NCBI GenBank assembly: GCA_016182725.1
Contig: JACPFZ010000026.1
Location: forward strand, 1 to 52,648
Direction: 5' to 3'
From: Candidatus Gottesmanbacteria bacterium
GTDB lineage: Bacteria > Patescibacteriota > Microgenomatia > UBA10105 > UBA927
Length of the DNA: 52,648 nt
A program made the position numbers and the translations under genes. The notes below the pieces were generated by a model. The model was given only the letters and a program-made list of their open reading frames with translations, was not told where the DNA came from and searched no databases. This document shows, one piece after another, positions 12,716-31,022 of this stretch (position 1 is the stretch's first letter; each line of letters starts with the position of its first letter).

Positions 12716-14384
12716 GTGGTGTATGATAAGAAAAGTATGGTTGTTCCAGATGCACAGCTTGCCTCTCTGGTTATTCAGGCGGGGTTTACCAATCAAGCCG
12801 GGATTGATACGGTTTCTCAATATGCGGCAGGTGCTCATGTGTCTCTTGCCTCTGCTATACTCGAGAAAGGTGTCGCGACAGATGAGCAGTTGGGGTCACT
12901 CATTGCAACTTTTCTCAAACTGCCATTTGTGCAGCTTTCAAAGATTTCTATCCCCCCAGACGTTTTTCATATCATTCCAGAAAAAGTTGCCAGGATCCAT
13001 CACGCGGTGGCCTTTGCGCGCGATACGGATGGCGTAAAGGTAGCGTCATCCAACCCTCAAGATCAGGCACTGTTTGCCATGGTGGAGAAAAAGACTAGCC
13101 GTCGGGTCATTATCTACTATGCGACCCAGCGCGATATAGAGAGTACACTGCAGGTATACAAAACACTTCTTCAGAATACGATTGATGAACTCCTGAAAGA
13201 AGATGTCAGCAAAGCGGCAACGACGGTCGTTTTAGAGGACCCGCCGGTTGCTAAAATTGTGGACGTCCTCATTGATAACGCGTACCAGGATAAGGCATCG
13301 GATATTCATATTGAGCCGGAGGAGAGCCAGTCGCTCATTCGTTTTCGCATTGACGGGGTGCTCCGAGACGTGTCACGGGTTCCCAAGTCTCTGCACGACC
13401 GGATTGTTACGCGCATTAAAGTGCTCTCGAGCCTGCGTACCGATGAACATTTGAGCGCCCAGGATGGCAAGATGCGTATGGCATTAACGGAGGAAAATCT
13501 CGATATTCGCGTCTCCATTATTCCGGTTTCTGATGGGGAAAAAGTGGTTCTGCGGCTTCTGTCTTCCCGATCGCGGCAGTTTACGTTGACTGATCTGGGG
13601 ATGAACGAACGGGATCTCCAAAAAGTGACCAATGCATTTAACAAATCCTACGGCATGATGTTGTCTACCGGTCCCACTGGCTGCGGGAAAACGACCACCA
13701 TCTATGCCATTTTGAAAATTCTCAATACCCGCGAGAAAAATATCACCACGATCGAAGAACCGGTGGAGTACCGGATAGCCGGTGCCAATCAAGTGCAGGT
13801 GAACCCCAAAACCAACCTCACATTTGCAAGCGGATTACGCAGCATTCTTCGACAGGATCCCAACATCATTTTTGTCGGTGAAATCCGTGACAACGATAGT
13901 GCTTTCCACGCTTCACACCAATGATGCGGCAACGGCGATTCCGAGACTCACGGATATGAAAGTCGAACCATTCTTAGTAGCTTCCACGGTAAATATCATC
14001 GTTGCCCAGCGGTTAGTACGGAAAATCTGTGATTCCTGTAAGGGAGCGATGAGTATAACCATTGATGAGCTGAAAAAACATTTGCCTCCAGAGGTGATCC
14101 AAAAGCATTTCGGAGGAGGACAAGAGATAACCATATACAGAGGAAAGGGCTGCAACATTTGCCATACCACTGGGTATTCCGGCAGGGTGGGTATTTTTGA
14201 AGTCCTTGAAGTGACCAAGGGAATCAGAAAACTCATTACGGAAAAAAGCGATTCCGATGTTATTGCGAAAGCTGCCGTTGCCGAAGGCATGAATACCATG
14301 CTGGATGATGGGTTGGAAAAAGTCATAAAAGGGTTCACGACCATTGAAGAAGTCATCAGGGCCACGAAAGTGGAATTTCTATGA
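12716..14384 (+). pseudogene. pilB: Type IV pilus / T2SS assembly ATPase PilB (GspE family), split by an internal deletion plus frameshift
   Basis: ORF 12716-13924 carries the T2SSE_N domain, Walker A GPTGCGKTTT, EEPVEY and Walker [13 protein letters not shown] 13824-14384, in a different frame, carries the His box [10 protein letters not shown] and the CxxC..CxxC zinc site. About 13 residues normally found between GEIRD and STLHTN are missing. Confidence 0.8.
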
Positions 14385-14522
14385 CCAGGTAGTAGAATTT
14401 CGACACGCTTAGCGTTGTCCGATTCACGCCATAAATCTGGTGTATAGAAAAATTATTTTTTAAAGAAAGGACAGTGAGGTTTCGCCGGCGTTCTAGACAA
14501 CGGTCGAAATTTCACTACCTGG
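14385..14522. repeat. Long-hairpin intergenic element, copy 1 (138 bp, MITE/REPIN-like)
   Basis: Ends are CCAGGTAGTAGAATTTCGAC and GTCGAAATTTCACTACCTGG, which pair over 20 bp with 1 mismatch. The copy is flanked by TATGA on both sides and lies between the pilB TGA and the pilC ATG. Confidence 0.85.
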
Positions 14523-14523
14523 T

Positions 14524-15564
14524 ATGATAACCTTGAAGGGCAGTGAAAAAATCGGACTCATCAGCAACCTTGCGACCATGCTTTCTGCAGGCATTCCCAT
14601 TTTGGAAGTCGTTAATTCGCTTCTGGAAGATGCGAAAGGTAGTCCGAAAATAATCCTCGAAGCGCTCAAGGAAGATTTAACGAGCGGAAAACGAATCTCT
14701 GTGTCATTTGCCCGATTCCCCAGGGTATTTGATCCGGTGACCATCAACGTCATTACAGCAGCAGAAACATCGGGGACATTGGACATCACGCTCAAAGATT
14801 TGAAAGAGGGCATCAGGAAGGAAATGGAGTTTTCGGATAAGGTGAAATCATCGCTTCTCTATCCTATTTTCATCATGATTATATTTGCCGCAGTTCTTCT
14901 TTTGGTTCTTGTCGTCGTCATTCCCAAGATTGCAATGGTTTTTGAGAAATTACGTGTTTCTCTTCCGTTGCCGACCAGAATCCTCATCTTTTTTTCAACG
15001 GTACTTCTCCATTACACCGTGTTTGTTATTGCCGGAGTTACCCTGCTCGTTATTGGGATTATTATTCTCTTCCGAATCAAGAGAAACGTTGTTTTCGACC
15101 TTCTTTTTTCTTTCCCTCTCATAAGTACTCTCATAAAGGAAATAGATCTCACCCGATTTTCCCGCAATCTTTCCCTCCTTCTTTCCTCGGGTCTGCCTAT
15201 TGCAGTGGCCCTTGAGCTTATTGCTCATGTGGTCATCAGGCGGCAAACCGCGCGCATTCTTCTGACCTCGCGTGATATGGTGATGGCGGGCAAAACTCTT
15301 TCGGAAGGATTCCGAGTATCCAAAGGATATTTCCCGGCGATTATGGTGAAACTGGTGGAAGCAGGGGAAAAAACCGGCACCCTGGATAAATCCATGCAGG
15401 AAATATCCGAATACTTTGATTATCAAGTGACCAATCGGTTAAAACTCCTCACGAGTCTACTCGAGCCTATCATGCTGGTGGTCGTGGGGATTGTGGTTGG
15501 TGGCATGATGCTTGCGATTGTTGGTCCTATCTACGGTCTGGTCAGCCAGGTCGGCGCACGGTGA
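14524..15564 (+). CDS. pilC: Type IV pilus platform protein PilC (T2SSF family)
   Basis: 346-aa ORF with two T2SSF repeats (NLATMLSAGIPILEVVNSL and NLSLLLSSGLPIAVALELI) and TM helices. It is shorter at the N-terminus than typical ~400-aa PilC proteins. Confidence 0.8.
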   Translation: MITLKGSEKIGLISNLATMLSAGIPILEVVNSLLEDAKGSPKIILEALKEDLTSGKRISVSFARFPRVFDPVTINVITAAETSGTLDITLKDLKEGIRKEMEFSDKVKSSLLYPIFIMIIFAAVLLLVLVVVIPKIAMVFEKLRVSLPLPTRILIFFSTVLLHYTVFVIAGVTLLVIGIIILFRIKRNVVFDLLFSFPLISTLIKEIDLTRFSRNLSLLLSSGLPIAVALELIAHVVIRRQTARILLTSRDMVMAGKTLSEGFRVSKGYFPAIMVKLVEAGEKTGTLDKSMQEISEYFDYQVTNRLKLLTSLLEPIMLVVVGIVVGGMMLAIVGPIYGLVSQVGAR

Positions 15565-22139: not shown

Positions 22140-22176
22140 GTGACTTAAGTAACTTAGGTAACTTAAAAAAAATACA

Positions 22177-22204
22177 AAACCCCGACCTTTTGATCGGGGT
22201 TTTG
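22177..22204 (+). terminator. Rho-independent terminator after the RRM gene
   Basis: AAAACCCCGA..TCGGGGTTTT stem followed by a T-rich tract. Confidence 0.7.
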
Positions 22205-22218
22205 CTATAATACACACT

Positions 22219-27791: not shown

Positions 27792-27827
27792 GGATGTATT
27801 ATATAATAAATGAATAAAGGAGGTCCT

Positions 27828-28436
27828 ATGTTTACCTTGCCGGAGTTGCCTTATGCGTACAACGCACTCGAGCCATATATTGATGAGGCTACGATGCGGA
27901 TTCATCATGATAAGCACCATGGTGCTTATGTGAAAAATCTCAACGATGCGTTTATGGGGCAGGATGATCTGTTGGCAATGTCTGTTGAAGATTTGGTAAA
28001 GAAGCTTTCTCAAGTCCCGGAAGCAGTCCGGATAAAAGTACGAAACAACGGAGGAGGACACGCCAATCATAGTTTGTTTTGGCAGGTGATGAGTCCTAAT
28101 CCCGCGGGGGCCCTTCGGCAAGCTCAGGGCGATTTAGATGCTGCTATTAAAAAATCGTTTGGGAGTTTTGACAAGTTTCAAGAATTATTTAGCGCTGCTG
28201 CCCTAAATCGATTTGGTTCAGGGTGGGCGTGGTTGGTTAAAGATAACGGAAAGCTTGTAGTTATGGACACGCCCAATCAGGATTCGCCGCTTATGGAAGG
28301 AAAGACGCCGATTTTGGGTCTTGATGTCTGGGAACACGCGTATTATCTCAAGTATCAAAATTTGAGGGCTGACTACATAAAAGCATGGTGGAGTGTGGTG
28401 AATTGGGCGGAAGTCGAAAAACGGTATGCCAGGTAG
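27828..28436 (+). CDS. sodA: Fe/Mn superoxide dismutase
   Basis: An AGGAGG Shine-Dalgarno sequence precedes ATG 27828. Signatures are [22 protein letters not shown] and DVWEHAYYL. The TAG stop at 28434-28436 lies inside repeat copy 2. Confidence 0.9.
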
Positions 28437-28568
28437 TAGAATTTCGACACGCTTTTCATGTTGTCCGGTTCGCAACGCTACCTTGGCCATACAAAGGTAT
28501 TTTTTAAAGAAAAGGGGGCCTGAAATTTTGACAGCGTAAAAGACAACAGTCGAAATTTCACTACCTGG
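28429..28568. repeat. Long-hairpin intergenic element, copy 2 (140 bp)
   Basis: It has the same 26-nt left end and the same ~20-nt right end as copy 1. It also shares the inner stem GTTGTC/GACAAC and the central TATTTTTTAAAGAAA block. It is flanked by TATG on both sides. Confidence 0.85.
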
Positions 28569-28569
28569 T

Positions 28570-29307
28570 ATGCGGGGAGTGCGTGATCCGAGGCTCCGGG
28601 TATTCAAGCTTCCTAAAGAAGCGATTATTTTCGCCTTTGCCCAGTGGCAGGGAAGTCGTAGCCGGCAGGAAGATTTCGTCGGAAATTTTAAGGACGAGTG
28701 CTTTGTTGTCTGTGATGGCGTCAGCGGACTGCCACATGGGGACGTAGCTGCCAATCTTGCCGGAGAAACCGCTCTGTGGGCGTACAAACAGGTGCGTCTG
28801 CGCAAAGGCTATTGGGCAGATAAGCGCCTCCTTATCCGGAGGATTTTTCGATCAACGAACCTTACCATCTGGCAGAAAAAAAGAGAACCAGGATTTGAAG
28901 ATGGGCTGGCAACCACGCTCCTTGTCGCTATTGTCGGACCCATGACCATCTGGGTGGGGAGCGTGGGGGATAGCAGTGCATGGGTTTATAACGGAAACCT
29001 CCTGAGGTTGACGCGTGAAGACCGCGATAGGAGCGGGAATCTCACGCGAGCCTTGGGGTATCAGCGCCTGGGGCTTTGGCCAAACGCCAGCCAGCAGCGA
29101 TTTTTATCAGGCGACCTTCTTATCCTTGCTACGGACGGCATTACATCCGTCCTTTCTCCGAAAGAGGTGTCAGCATTGGTGAAAAACGCCGGAGATACGT
29201 CAGATGGACTTACCAACACTGCTCAAGAGATTATACGAAAAGCTCGAAACATGGGTGCCACAGACAATATGACGGTCTGTTTAGTTAAGCGCATTGCACT
29301 CCCTTGA
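28570..29307 (+). CDS. PP2C-family Ser/Thr protein phosphatase
   Basis: 245 aa with SRSRQEDF, VCDGVSG, LILATDGI and ATDNMTV (PPM metal-binding motifs). Confidence 0.8.
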   Translation: MRGVRDPRLRVFKLPKEAIIFAFAQWQGSRSRQEDFVGNFKDECFVVCDGVSGLPHGDVAANLAGETALWAYKQVRLRKGYWADKRLLIRRIFRSTNLTIWQKKREPGFEDGLATTLLVAIVGPMTIWVGSVGDSSAWVYNGNLLRLTREDRDRSGNLTRALGYQRLGLWPNASQQRFLSGDLLILATDGITSVLSPKEVSALVKNAGDTSDGLTNTAQEIIRKARNMGATDNMTVCLVKRIALP

Positions 29308-29332
29308 TAAGTTACTGATATACTAGTACCAT

Positions 29333-29536
29333 CCAGGTAGTGAAACTTCAGAAACGTATGTTCTTTTCAGAGACTATACGATACATGAGGAGGTTCCACT
29401 GGAAAAGAACATACGTTTGAAATATGAAGCAAAACGCAGAAGTGACTATTCAACAAATAAAGAGAGGAGACTTTTCAAGCGCAGAATAAAAGATTGTTTC
29501 TATTCTCTGCGTTTTGCCTGAAGTTCTACTACCTGG
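29333..29536. repeat. Long-hairpin intergenic element, copy 3 (204 bp, variant interior, opposite arm polarity)
   Basis: Ends are CCAGGTAGTGAAACTTCAG and CTGAAGTTCTACTACCTGG. The interior holds two further perfect stems: 29352-29368/29402-29418 and 29429-29440/29506-29517. Confidence 0.8.
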
Positions 29537-29537
29537 T

Positions 29538-31022
29538 ATGCCCGATGATTTTTTTGCCGATATTTCTGATGGCAAAACCCCGCCGACGTACCGATTTTTC
29601 AATGGCAAAGAATGGGTGGTATCTACAAGTGGGAAAATAACAGCGGTGCATTCTCCGATTGATGCGTCTATTGTTGGTCATCTTCAGGTGGTCACTACTG
29701 CGGAAATTGATGCGGTGATGGAAACTGCTAAGGCGGCCCAGCCAGCGTGGGAGGCAATACCCCTGAATCAGCGCGTCAAAATCATGCATTTGGCCGCAGA
29801 CTGGACTGCCCATTTTGCTGATTACCTTATTGCGCTTTTGATGCGGGAGATTGGAAAAACGACCGATGAAGCCAAGGGAGAAATTATGCGCACCGTAGAC
29901 CTTACGGATTACTTTGCCGATGAAGCCCAGTCACTGCGCGGAGAAACACTGGACAGTGATAATTTTCCCGGGTTTGAAAAAGGACGTATTGCGCTCGTTG
30001 AGCGCGTCGCCTATGGCGTGGTGGTCGCCATTAGCCCGTTTAACTATCCGGTCAATCTCTCTGCAAGTAAAATTGTCCCGGCCCTCCTTATGGGTAATAG
30101 CGTGGTCTTTAAGCCGCCGACCCAGGGAGCAATCAGTGGACTGCATTTGACGAAAATTTTCCAAAAAGCTGGTGTGCCTGCTGGCGTTTTGAGTTGTGTC
30201 ACTGGGGGAGGAGGAGAGATTGGTGATTATTTGGTGAGCCATCCAAAAGCAGACCTTATTACCTTTACGGGAAGTAGCGATACAGGAAGGGCGATTGCTG
30301 TAGCAGGCGGCATGAAGCCTTTGGTATTTGAATGCGGCGGCAACAATCCGGCCGTTGTTTTTCCTGATGCGGATATGAGTTTGACTGTTCGGGAAATTAT
30401 TAAAGGCGGCTTTTCCTATGCCGGTCAGCGCTGTACGGCCATTAAATACGTGCTCGGAACATCGGGAGTGTTAGAAAGCCTTTTGCAAGAGGTCCTCTTG
30501 CAAATGAAGACACTTGTTCACATGGGTGACCCGCGAAGTCCCGAGACCAAACTCGTCGGGCCGGTGATATCAGAACAAGCCGCCCTTCATATTGAAGAAG
30601 TTATTCAAGAGGCGGTGGGTGACGGGGCAACCATCGCAACTGGTGGCAAACGCACTGCCAGCTACATCGAACCGACGATTTTGACCAATGTCAAGCCAAC
30701 GATGAAGATTGTAGGAACGGAGGTTTTTGGACCGGTAATTTCTTTTATGAGCGTCAACAGTATGGATGAGGCGGCTACCATCATCAATGGGTCACATTTT
30801 GGACTCCAGGCATCGGTATTTACGAAAGACGAGGGGACAGGGATTGTGTTTGCTCGGCAGCTTAATGTCGGTACAGTTCAGATTAACGGTTCGCCCCAGC
30901 GCGGCCCGGATCATTTTCCATTTTTAGGCGTCAAGCGCTCCGGCTTGGGCGTCCAGGGCGTGCGGTATTCTTTGGAAGCTATGAGTAGACTCAAACCCAT
31001 CGTCCTCAATAAACCCGCTTGA
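29538..31022 (+). CDS. Aldehyde dehydrogenase family protein (non-phosphorylating GAPDH GapN-like)
   Basis: VFECGGNNP, the catalytic-Cys region YAGQRCTA and EVFGPV are present. The start is placed at ATG 29538 (MPDDFF), directly after the repeat. The ORF-track start at 29514 lies inside the repeat arm. Confidence 0.75.
   Translation: MPDDFFADISDGKTPPTYRFFNGKEWVVSTSGKITAVHSPIDASIVGHLQVVTTAEIDAVMETAKAAQPAWEAIPLNQRVKIMHLAADWTAHFADYLIALLMREIGKTTDEAKGEIMRTVDLTDYFADEAQSLRGETLDSDNFPGFEKGRIALVERVAYGVVVAISPFNYPVNLSASKIVPALLMGNSVVFKPPTQGAISGLHLTKIFQKAGVPAGVLSCVTGGGGEIGDYLVSHPKADLITFTGSSDTGRAIAVAGGMKPLVFECGGNNPAVVFPDADMSLTVREIIKGGFSYAGQRCTAIKYVLGTSGVLESLLQEVLLQMKTLVHMGDPRSPETKLVGPVISEQAALHIEEVIQEAVGDGATIATGGKRTASYIEPTILTNVKPTMKIVGTEVFGPVISFMSVNSMDEAATIINGSHFGLQASVFTKDEGTGIVFARQLNVGTVQINGSPQRGPDHFPFLGVKRSGLGVQGVRYSLEAMSRLKPIVLNKPA

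Follow-up and report, generated by a model that had tools for sequence, protein, structure and literature searches.

In a stretch of 52,648 nucleotides from a Candidatus Gottesmanbacteria bacterium (contig JACPFZ010000026.1 of assembly GCA_016182725.1; the whole stretch is referred to as the window), three hairpin elements each end exactly one nucleotide before the start codon of the next gene. We propose, with a probability of about three in four, that they are members of a Patescibacteria family of palindromic transposable elements of very small size, in which a 310-bp cassette encoding a GIY-YIG nuclease is the full-size form. Insertion duplicates 4-5 bp of the target, overwhelmingly T|ATG, and the right duplicate regenerates the start codon of the gene behind the element. 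Copies 1 and 2 are mobile, non-coding members of the family that resemble MITEs (transposable elements of miniature size with inverted repeats), and copy 3 is the deletion relic of a nuclease cassette. The nuclease-cassette family with its tropism for start codons is previously undescribed. Judged by its best-named homologues, the window resembles Gottesmanbacteria. The three elements are located as follows; loci outside the window carry numbers preceded by L.

Copy 1, 14385..14522, + strand: 138 nt, non-coding hairpin of the AATTTCGAC subfamily; orthologous site empty in L266/L268
Copy 1 arms: GTAGAA arm 14385-14404, pilC-distal; GTGAAA-type arm 14503-14522, pilC-proximal
Copy 2, 28429..28568, + strand: 140 nt, non-coding hairpin of the subfamily of copy 1, pointing the same way; site unoccupied in L131, L130 and L129
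Copy 3, 29333..29536, + strand: 204 nt, relic of a GIY-YIG cassette with an internal deletion; empty sites in L130 and L131

The three copies share ends of the form CCAGGTAGT(AG/GA)AA(T/C)TTC... and its complement, with ACTACCTGG as the right terminus. Each is directly followed by T-ATG, in which the ATG starts pilC (14524), a PP2C phosphatase gene (28570) and an aldehyde dehydrogenase gene (29538), as assigned by Pfam matches. A first-pass annotation of the window had reported these coordinates, ends and junctions, and all of them are confirmed. The 17-mer that it proposed has six exact matches in the window and eight when up to three mismatches are allowed, compared with 0.66 expected, and no shuffled sequence reached eight. 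It was also right that copies 1 and 2 do not differ in their first 26 nt and last 20 nt and that both contain GTTGTC/GACAAC and a TATTTTTTAAAGAAA block. The three copies had been grouped as one family; this holds, but copy 3 is inverted with respect to copies 1 and 2, with a left arm GTGAAA where the others have GTAGAA, and it is a decayed coding cassette, both of which had been missed.

The 20-bp terminal stem is the minimum free energy fold on both strands (RNA z = -4.7 to -7.3; DNA z = -4.0 to -5.7). A stem of about this length with one mismatch had been described before; the stem stands, but its positions 10-11 hold an A·C mismatch beside a G·T pair. This imperfection is a conserved feature of the family that the first reading had overlooked, as A·C at position 10 is kept in 141 of 143 copies and G·T at position 11 in 138 of 143, under a search pattern that permitted perfect pairing there. 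The stems have no trailing T run, and the copies were not called by an intrinsic-terminator scan; against Rfam 15, the whole window gave no match at the gathering score, and the surroundings of copy 1 gave none at E <= 1. A strong terminator-like hairpin with 14 pairs and a following T run lies at 22174-22205 on the minus strand; no other intrinsic terminator in the 16 kb that were scanned is as clear.

Pairing of the two ends is supported by their covariation. The search pattern partly fixed arm positions 1-16, left positions 17-20 free and allowed Y/R at position 14 independently at the two ends. Of the cells at positions 13, 14 and 17-20 of the arms, 96.8% are paired, compared with 74.7 ± 0.9% (maximum 77.3%) when partners were shuffled among copies and 18-38% when partners were slid, and double compensatory changes occur in 6-48 copies per arm position. 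That these positions vary freely while complementarity is maintained argues for a physical pairing of the element ends at some stage. The covariation argues against recognition of each end as duplex DNA, which would not yield it, and is compatible with pairing in either DNA or RNA.

Empty sites, target duplications and spread of the family

The flanks of the three copies and the genes beside them are listed below.

Left duplication of copy 1, 14380..14384, + strand: TATGA, including the pilB stop TGA, which adjoins copy 1
Right duplication of copy 1, 14523..14527, + strand: TATGA, including the pilC start ATG 14524-14526
Left duplication of copy 2, 28425..28428, + strand: TATG, within the sodA 3' end
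Right duplication of copy 2, 28569..28572, + strand: TATG, including the PP2C start ATG (28570)
TATG right of copy 3, 29537..29540, + strand: includes the aldehyde dehydrogenase start (29538)
pilB 3' part (T2SSE ATPase), 13824..14384, + strand: upstream neighbour of copy 1, frameshifted off the open reading frame (ORF) 12716-13924
pilC (T2SSF, PF00482), 14524..15564, + strand: start codon adjoins copy 1
sodA (Fe/Mn superoxide dismutase), 27810..28436, + strand: stop TAG 28434-28436 supplied by copy 2
PP2C phosphatase (PF13672, PF00481), 28570..29307, + strand: between copies 2 and 3
Aldehyde dehydrogenase (PF00171), 29538..31022, + strand: start codon adjoins copy 3

Syntenic loci in relatives, reached via homologues of the PP2C and pilC genes of the window, revealed the sites before insertion. 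Two of them (L130 and L131) have the gene order PBP-sodA-PP2C-ALDH-IMPDH (ALDH, aldehyde dehydrogenase) as in the window, and both the sodA/PP2C and the PP2C/ALDH junctions are empty. At the former, L131 reads AAACGC-TATG-CCGAACGTGCTTGA with a single TATG, whereas the window reads AAACGG-TATG-(140 nt)-TATG-CGGGGAGTGCGTGA; L129, in which PP2C is 80% identical to that of the window, likewise has one TATG at an empty site. Copy 2 has shortened the C-terminus of sodA, which ends in ...RYAR in the window and in ...RYAERA in L131. The pilB/pilC junction of L266 and L268 reads GAATTTT-TATGA-AGACT, an ordinary ATGA stop/start overlap, compared with TATGA-(138 nt)-TATGA in the window. Copies 1 and 2 are insertions with target duplication at stop/start junctions, as the first-pass annotation had suggested from the TATGA and TATG flanks and from upstream stop codons lying next to copy 1 and inside copy 2; these details proved accurate, and the orthologous empty sites bear the suggestion out. 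The flank repeat of copy 3 is imperfect, with CAT (29330-29332) on the left vs TAT(G) on the right, and its empty counterparts read TACATC-ATG-CCC and ACTGGT-ATG-CCG vs GTACCAT-(204 nt)-TATGCCC in the window.

Several further features were observed at these junctions. In the empty PP2C/ALDH junctions, TATACT lies exactly 6 nt 5' of the aldehyde dehydrogenase ATG (L130:3745-3775 and L131:3735-3765), a spacing that would be expected if it served a leaderless mRNA as its -10 box; copy 3 parts this box from the ATG in the window. About 110 nt upstream of its empty TATG site, L129 contains another insertion (1730-1910) with the inverted repeat CTTCGACTCG/CGAGTCGAAG, which is bordered by a ~25-nt segment, duplicated from the 3' end of sodA, and may represent another family of hairpin elements. 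Upstream of copy 1, pilB (12716-14384) is split into two overlapping ORFs that cover Pfam profile positions 4-226 (12716-13924) and 238-370 (13824-14384), and this frameshift reflects either a pseudogene or an assembly error.

Further copies were sought beyond the window by a 17-mer scan covering one genome per species and by a two-ended pattern on metagenome contigs (at least 120 loci), and together these yielded at least 152 unique copies in genomes and metagenomes of Patescibacteria. The paired 17-mer matches listed all come from Patescibacteria assemblies (Gottesmanbacteria, Giovannonibacteria, Saccharibacteria and unclassified bins of the candidate phyla radiation, CPR). Most copies are 126-150 nt long, which equals the range of the pattern; a few measure only 66-86 nt, and some units reach 204 or 309-314 nt. 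Among the 150 copies with full flanks, on which the flank statistics rest, a direct repeat of 4 bp is present in 94 and of 5 bp in 13 (107 together), and the duplicated sequence is TATG/CATA in 71, TATGA/TCATA in nine and ATGA in five. The placement seen in the window recurs throughout the family: 105 of the 150 copies terminate exactly 1 nt 5' of an ATG that opens an ORF with 60 codons or more, and 69 of the 71 copies that duplicate TATG/CATA are at gene starts (97%). The downstream ORF could be translated for 99 start-adjacent copies; these ORFs fall into 84 gene families, among them ribosomal proteins S14, S19 and L6, GroEL, HrcA and thioredoxin. Element pairs that are 90-95% identical stand before unrelated genes, which points to fairly recent movement.

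The non-coding copies have no conserved ORF, and scans for an outward promoter or a terminator consensus in the elements stayed at background level. A mini-ORF behind the GAAAGGAG block of the 138-nt subfamily was considered and discarded, because motif and start codon occur together in only 22 of 48 copies, with varying lengths and frames. A single strict orientation toward the gene held for the first 12 copies and then gave way to a ratio of 61:34 among 95 copies of 100-160 nt, dependent on the subfamily. The two-ended pattern had no match in viral contigs, and phage-DNA and plasmid-protein searches returned none. The 9-mer that opens the shared end, followed by AAAAT, is also present in CRISPR repeats with a 66-bp period (L022, L038, L107; Atopobium), which are unrelated to the element family.

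The GIY-YIG nuclease cassette and the movement of the elements

The full-size unit of the family comprises about 310 bp. Its terminal inverted repeat of 20 bp encloses a ribosome site, which is weak and purine-rich, and an ORF whose ~89 codons specify a single-domain GIY-YIG protein. It was first recognised when the ORF beside a solitary end in L103 was used in a tblastn search and matched inside a 313-bp unit (L015) and a 309-bp unit (L030). In L015, the repeat is followed by AGAAGATT, an ATG, 90 codons, a TGA within the right repeat and then the T-ATG of the host gene. About ten intact cassettes with a GIY-YIG ORF between the same repeats were found (L015/L119, L030, L103, L221, L254, L259, L271, L273 and two in L274), and in most of those examined the stop codon of the nuclease ORF is inside the right repeat. 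The repeats occur as CCAGG, CCGGG, CCCCG and CCAGCAG variants (CCGGGTAGTGAAG, CCCCGTAGAGAAA, CCAGCAGTGAAAA), of which both ends change together, and their GA/AG asymmetry is kept where it was checked (L259). Seven cassettes are at host start codons, including those of fpg, hrcA and fusA. Each of the seven reads in the direction of its host gene, and the flanking repeat is TATG in five, ATGGAT in one and degenerate in one. At the 3' junctions that were read (L015/L119, L254 and L274 at fusA), the nuclease stop codon lies 16 nt before the host ATG. As for the other three cassettes, L030 follows a stop codon, L221 has a TGAAA repeat and L103 is truncated where its contig ends.

In an alignment with the cassettes of L015 and L274, copy 3 matches their first 35 nt and their last ~115 nt. 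It has kept the cassette start ATGTTCTTTT (ATG at 29358) and a C-terminal coding remnant at 29426-29518, which is 51.5% identical over 33 amino acids in a tblastn alignment and is followed by the stop TGA (29519-29521) within the right arm. Copies 1 and 2 have retained only the ends of the cassette and carry unrelated conserved inner blocks.

The cassette protein matches only PF01541 in Pfam (E = 4e-16 to 9e-19) and is made up of the catalytic domain and one C-terminal helix within ~89 amino acids. More than 1000 clusters at 90% identity share it, mostly at a length of ~89 residues, and the few named ones are from Patescibacteria or Gottesmanbacteria; a profile search retrieved 3538 clusters at 50% identity (E <= 1e-10). 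Ten residues are invariant among 30 homologues (Y4, Y6, Y17, G19, R27, E30, H31, N32, E51 and E63), and Y6, Y17, R27 and H31 bear what we take to be the same numbering as the catalytic residues of I-TevI. An AlphaFold model (predicted local distance difference test, pLDDT, 86) is nearest to UPF0213 BH0048 and to the Slx1 nuclease domain (template modelling, TM, score 0.6-0.65; root-mean-square deviation ~2 Å) and far from I-TevI. From residue conservation and model, the nuclease looks active. Database proteins illustrate how the repeats mislead gene callers: the gene calls P0021, P0087 and P0118 begin upstream and take in the translated left repeat (e.g. ...VKLQTIMFFY). In L252 (499-1015), two GIY-YIG homologues stand in tandem beside a tRNA-like sequence, and neither has recognisable terminal repeats.

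These observations suggest a mechanism in which the two ends would pair with each other, either in single-stranded DNA or in a cruciform, the stem would be marked by the conserved A·C/G·T bulge, and a Slx1-like structure-specific nuclease would cut at the stem base and so enable the element to move. We give somewhat better than even odds to the cassette nuclease mobilising both the coding and the non-coding forms through this hairpin or cruciform of paired ends.

A number of points weigh against the proposed explanation. No intact nuclease gene is present within the 52.6-kb window, and nuclease homologues are no commoner near non-coding copies than expected by chance. Homologues that are 43-66% identical (L183:1703-1954, L187:729-977, L006:5508-5765) are without recognisable terminal repeats; these, like the pair in L252, may be immobilised, domesticated or end-diverged copies. 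Terminal inverted repeats and a duplication of fixed length are classically the mark of DDE transposases, and such an enzyme could act in trans from another place in these genomes; moreover, we know of no GIY-YIG enzyme that performs strand transfer. GIY-YIG nucleases are hydrolytic (review PMC1564403). As hydrolases for which no joining activity is known, they would depend on host ligation or repair to finish transposition. The 138-nt subfamily, as judged by the bulge, is inverted relative to the coding cassettes, yet it faces genes non-randomly, and this bias is not predicted by a purely end-directed mechanism. Searches for a sequence feature behind the preference for start codons were also negative: apart from A-richness on either side, the reconstructed empty sites contain no motif beyond T-ATG, and a search for an IS608-like guide tetranucleotide inside the element gave no consistent candidate. 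Lastly, effects of the elements at the RNA level are pure inference.

In an alternative reading, the elements are ordinary MITEs moved in trans by a DDE-type transposase encoded elsewhere, with the GIY-YIG ORF as a passenger or addiction gene. Such an enzyme would account for the 20-bp inverted repeats, the 4-5 bp duplication and the presence of three elements without a nuclease gene in the window, and the hydrolytic chemistry of GIY-YIG proteins also speaks in its favour. Nevertheless, we regard this alternative as rather improbable, because in ten cassettes of diverged lineages the ORF is tightly enclosed by repeats that co-vary at both ends, mostly with the stop codon in the right repeat, and because inner arm positions co-vary instead of being conserved, which indicates pairing rather than sequence recognition in double-stranded DNA. 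A longer parent was not encountered either, as the sequence searched contained no pair of repeats at a distance of 400-4000 nt, which is weak evidence because only genome fragments were covered. An IS1380/piggyBac-like parent, a family with CC ends and a 4-5 bp duplication, is unsupported because such a repeat pair was not seen.

The GIY-YIG domain is a classic fold of homing endonucleases, and the cassettes stand between conserved genes and are co-transcribed, like the seg and mob genes of phages. Moreover, each cassette protein that was looked up is found at one locus across many samples. The cassette could accordingly be viewed as a free-standing homing endonuclease gene that spreads only between homologous sites via break repair. 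This is very improbable, since the protein is an 89-residue catalytic domain without a DNA-binding domain, homing makes neither inverted repeats nor target duplications, and near-identical non-coding copies stand at unrelated genes, with 84 distinct target genes.

Start codons as targets and the survival of host genes

The concentration of insertions at start codons exceeds what the target sequence alone would provide. The window contains ~30 non-coding TATG/CATA sites and 22 T-ATG starts, and 646 kb of related loci contain 856 non-coding TATG/CATA sites, a count inflated by crude gene calling, vs 284 T-ATG starts. With a 4-nt target and intragenic losses only, 25-45% of the surviving copies would be expected at starts; the observed proportion is 97%. 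About half of the sites are tight operon junctions, in which the upstream stop codon lies -16 to +8 nt from the element. These fit survivorship in very compact genomes, which does not cover the remaining sites. Among the 689 ORF starts of these loci, T precedes ATG in 284 (41%), or in roughly a third once element-adjacent genes are left out.

Minor repeat subfamilies use other tetranucleotides, which correspond to the 5' edges of expression signals. In the GAGG subfamily (arms AACTTCGAT; L138, L139, L153, L231), the target lies inside GGAGG, 8 nt 5' of the start codon. A subfamily that duplicates TCAA/TTGA (arms ...AATTTTGAC/GTCAAAATT...; L211, L216, L240, L155, L210, L209, L247) is inserted at TTGACAAAA, a -35-like hexamer in which TTGA is part of TTGACA, and a further minor target is TATAA or TAT in TATAAT-N6-ATG. 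The repeat subfamily tracks both the target tetranucleotide and the orientation. The flanking tetranucleotide might travel with the element or be read by it, which would explain why target and orientation are specific to the subfamily; we consider this unlikely. The arm of the TTGA subfamily contains TTGAC, and the TATG and GAGG subfamilies have no counterpart. The tropism for start codons may be due to targeting, to flanks inherited within lineages or to strong survivorship.

How host genes tolerate insertion at the start codon may be related to their mode of translation. A Shine-Dalgarno-like motif stands before only ~18% of the ORF starts in 71 loci of Patescibacteria (646 kb), so initiation may depend little on the upstream sequence, and translation initiation in these lineages seems to be largely Shine-Dalgarno-independent. 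In the non-coding copies, the stem has the upstream stop codon at its 5' foot and the AUG at its 3' foot, whereby the original proximity of stop and start is kept in space. When the element is co-transcribed, its RNA hairpin would loop out and bring the upstream stop codon or Shine-Dalgarno sequence beside the downstream AUG. In the coding cassettes, the distance of 16 nt between the end of the nuclease ORF and the AUG would be suited to termination-reinitiation. Seven copies have lost the left duplicate, and an AAGGAG-type sequence adjoins the 5' arm while the AUG lies 1 nt past the 3' arm; by analogy, these look like a split ribosome site bridged by a hairpin. Sequences of the AAGGAG, AAAGG or CAGGG type abut the 5' arm at L151:5684, L178:9373, L192:4395, L154:361, L035:3763 and L047:2428, and two of these precede groEL-like genes. 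That host genes survive because the transcribed element folds away is a tentative proposal, to which we assign a little less than an even chance.

A function of the hairpins for the host would offer another rationale for their position. The first-pass annotation had suggested that the stem could be an RNase III-type processing site that separates cistrons and leaves a near-leaderless downstream mRNA, and in a broader form of this idea the hairpins are primarily regulatory or processing elements (RNase III sites, translational insulators or couplers) maintained by selection, with mobility lying in the past. A 20-bp RNA stem is long enough for RNase III, the placement at the AUG is exact, the orientation is non-random, inner blocks such as GAAAGGAG and GCGTAAAAGGCAAAGG are conserved, and some copies have a Shine-Dalgarno sequence adjoining the stem. 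On the other hand, close relatives have kept the genes without elements at the same junctions, the 84 downstream families have no common theme and both orientations occur. Likewise, no Rfam match was obtained and no promoter or terminator consensus is enriched, and the same ends bound a nuclease gene. We consider a primarily regulatory role improbable, slightly more so than movement by a DDE enzyme.

The most far-reaching form of our explanation combines several steps: the ~310-bp cassette would be a complete autonomous transposon, the smallest known, and its 89-residue Slx1-like GIY-YIG protein would represent a new transposase chemistry, in which the whole-length hairpin is recognised by its bulge, the stem base is cut, the element inserts at T|ATG and the transcript loops out. 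We rate the chances of this combination as somewhat short of even.

Significance and comparison with known systems

We know of no prokaryotic transposon family built on a GIY-YIG nuclease. If a 310-bp element with a single 89-residue protein is indeed autonomous, it would shift the minimum size of autonomous mobile DNA downward and bring in a further class of transposases, and the cassette is possibly the smallest self-contained transposon described. It is unusual that insertions at the start codons of essential and highly expressed genes (ribosomal proteins, EF-G, GroEL) do not kill them, and the elements provide a natural system for studying how translation begins immediately behind a 20-bp stem in organisms in which Shine-Dalgarno sequences are mostly missing. 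They are common in Patescibacteria, the genomes of which are thought to be streamlined and poor in repeats, and ORFs predicted by gene callers run on through them. A nuclease as small as this one, predicted to be structure-specific and to have a defined hairpin as its substrate, may also be of use as a reagent.

Phage T4 genes 38 and 25 have split ribosome-binding sites that are bridged by a hairpin. The seven AAGGAG copies appear similar in that folding would restore a normal spacing, but because most host genes here lack a Shine-Dalgarno sequence (~18% have one), the analogy is structural only. Slx1 is a repair enzyme that cleaves stem-loops and branched DNA and requires Slx4 and a RING domain; the function of BH0048 is, to our knowledge, not known. 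Slx1 and UPF0213 are the best fold and sequence matches of the cassette protein, with BH0048 (1zg2, E = 2e-4) as the best match of solved structure, and the activity of Slx1 would fit an enzyme acting at the base of a hairpin. Unlike Slx1, the cassette protein belongs to a mobile element.

Systems of the IS200/IS605, PATE and REP/RAYT type depend on DNA hairpins, have non-coding derivatives, use targets of 4-5 nt and show an orientation tied to the target strand. Our family resembles IS200/IS605 in being composed of small hairpin elements with abundant non-coding derivatives and a short specific target. It differs from IS200/IS605, which employ an HUH tyrosine (Y1) transposase, have subterminal hairpins and make no duplication, by its GIY-YIG partner, the pairing of its ends and the target duplication in the 107 copies mentioned above.

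The closest published system is Ssn, to which we liken the cassettes by domain, size and layout. Ssn enzymes are single-domain GIY-YIG proteins of ~94 residues that cut single-stranded DNA beside a hairpin repeat (NTS/SRM). This repeat borders the nuclease gene at either end and recurs many times through the genome, for the most part between genes (Chenal et al. 2025, Nat Commun, PMC11893778). Membership was defined by a blastp match to SsnA (CAX49033.1) at E < 1e-10 and 75% cover, or by cd10448 as the top CDD hit, together with a length of <150 residues (PMC11893778). As in Ssn, the cassette protein is a single-domain GIY-YIG protein of <150 residues, and its gene lies between scattered hairpin-forming repeats. 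In Ssn, however, each flanking repeat forms its own hairpin of ~28 nt, whereas here the two ends pair across the whole element. The SRM motif HGTCWYN(0-2)YYVSBRHN(0-5)WNVSBRGN(0-2)RNCYNB had no flanking match in five cassettes with 500-nt flanks, apart from one stray match, and none in the window. The authors noted that the repeat-gene-repeat arrangement resembles an insertion sequence, and mobility, target duplication and empty sites were not demonstrated (PMC11893778). Target duplications and empty sites are documented for the elements described here, and a target at the start codon is not described for Ssn. The filled and empty sites with their duplications make the mobility of hairpin-flanked small GIY-YIG genes, left open in that paper, a testable question; should the cassette be an autonomous transposon, it would provide the first direct evidence that modules of a GIY-YIG protein and hairpins of the Ssn type are, or descend from, mobile elements.

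With bacterial MITEs such as Correia, ERIC and RUP, the elements share a length of 100-300 bp, terminal inverted repeats, target duplication, long RNA stems and co-transcription. The likeness to MITEs, REPINs, Correia and ERIC elements noted in the first-pass annotation is sound as far as a MITE-like mobile family is concerned, but it does not extend to membership in the Correia, ERIC or REPIN families, from which they appear to differ in sequence and do differ in duplication length and enzyme. Correia elements duplicate TA, in contrast to the 4-5 bp, mostly TATG, found here, and classic MITEs have an insertion sequence of 1-2 kb as partner instead of a 310-bp nuclease cassette. Literature searches, of incomplete coverage, retrieved no repeat-bounded GIY-YIG transposon, no CPR MITEs with this target and no start-codon-specific MITEs; within the same coverage, placement 1 nt before the ATG, as in ~70% of the copies, is unreported for known MITE families. 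Copies 1 and 2 nevertheless show what characterises a MITE: they are short and non-coding, have inverted repeats, a target duplication and empty sites, and are two of many copies. A longer element with the same ends (~310 bp) exists as well, and it encodes a GIY-YIG nuclease and no proven transposase. MITE-like elements and hairpin-associated small GIY-YIG genes are each already known, and there is a substantial chance that the family described here constitutes a new class of transposons.

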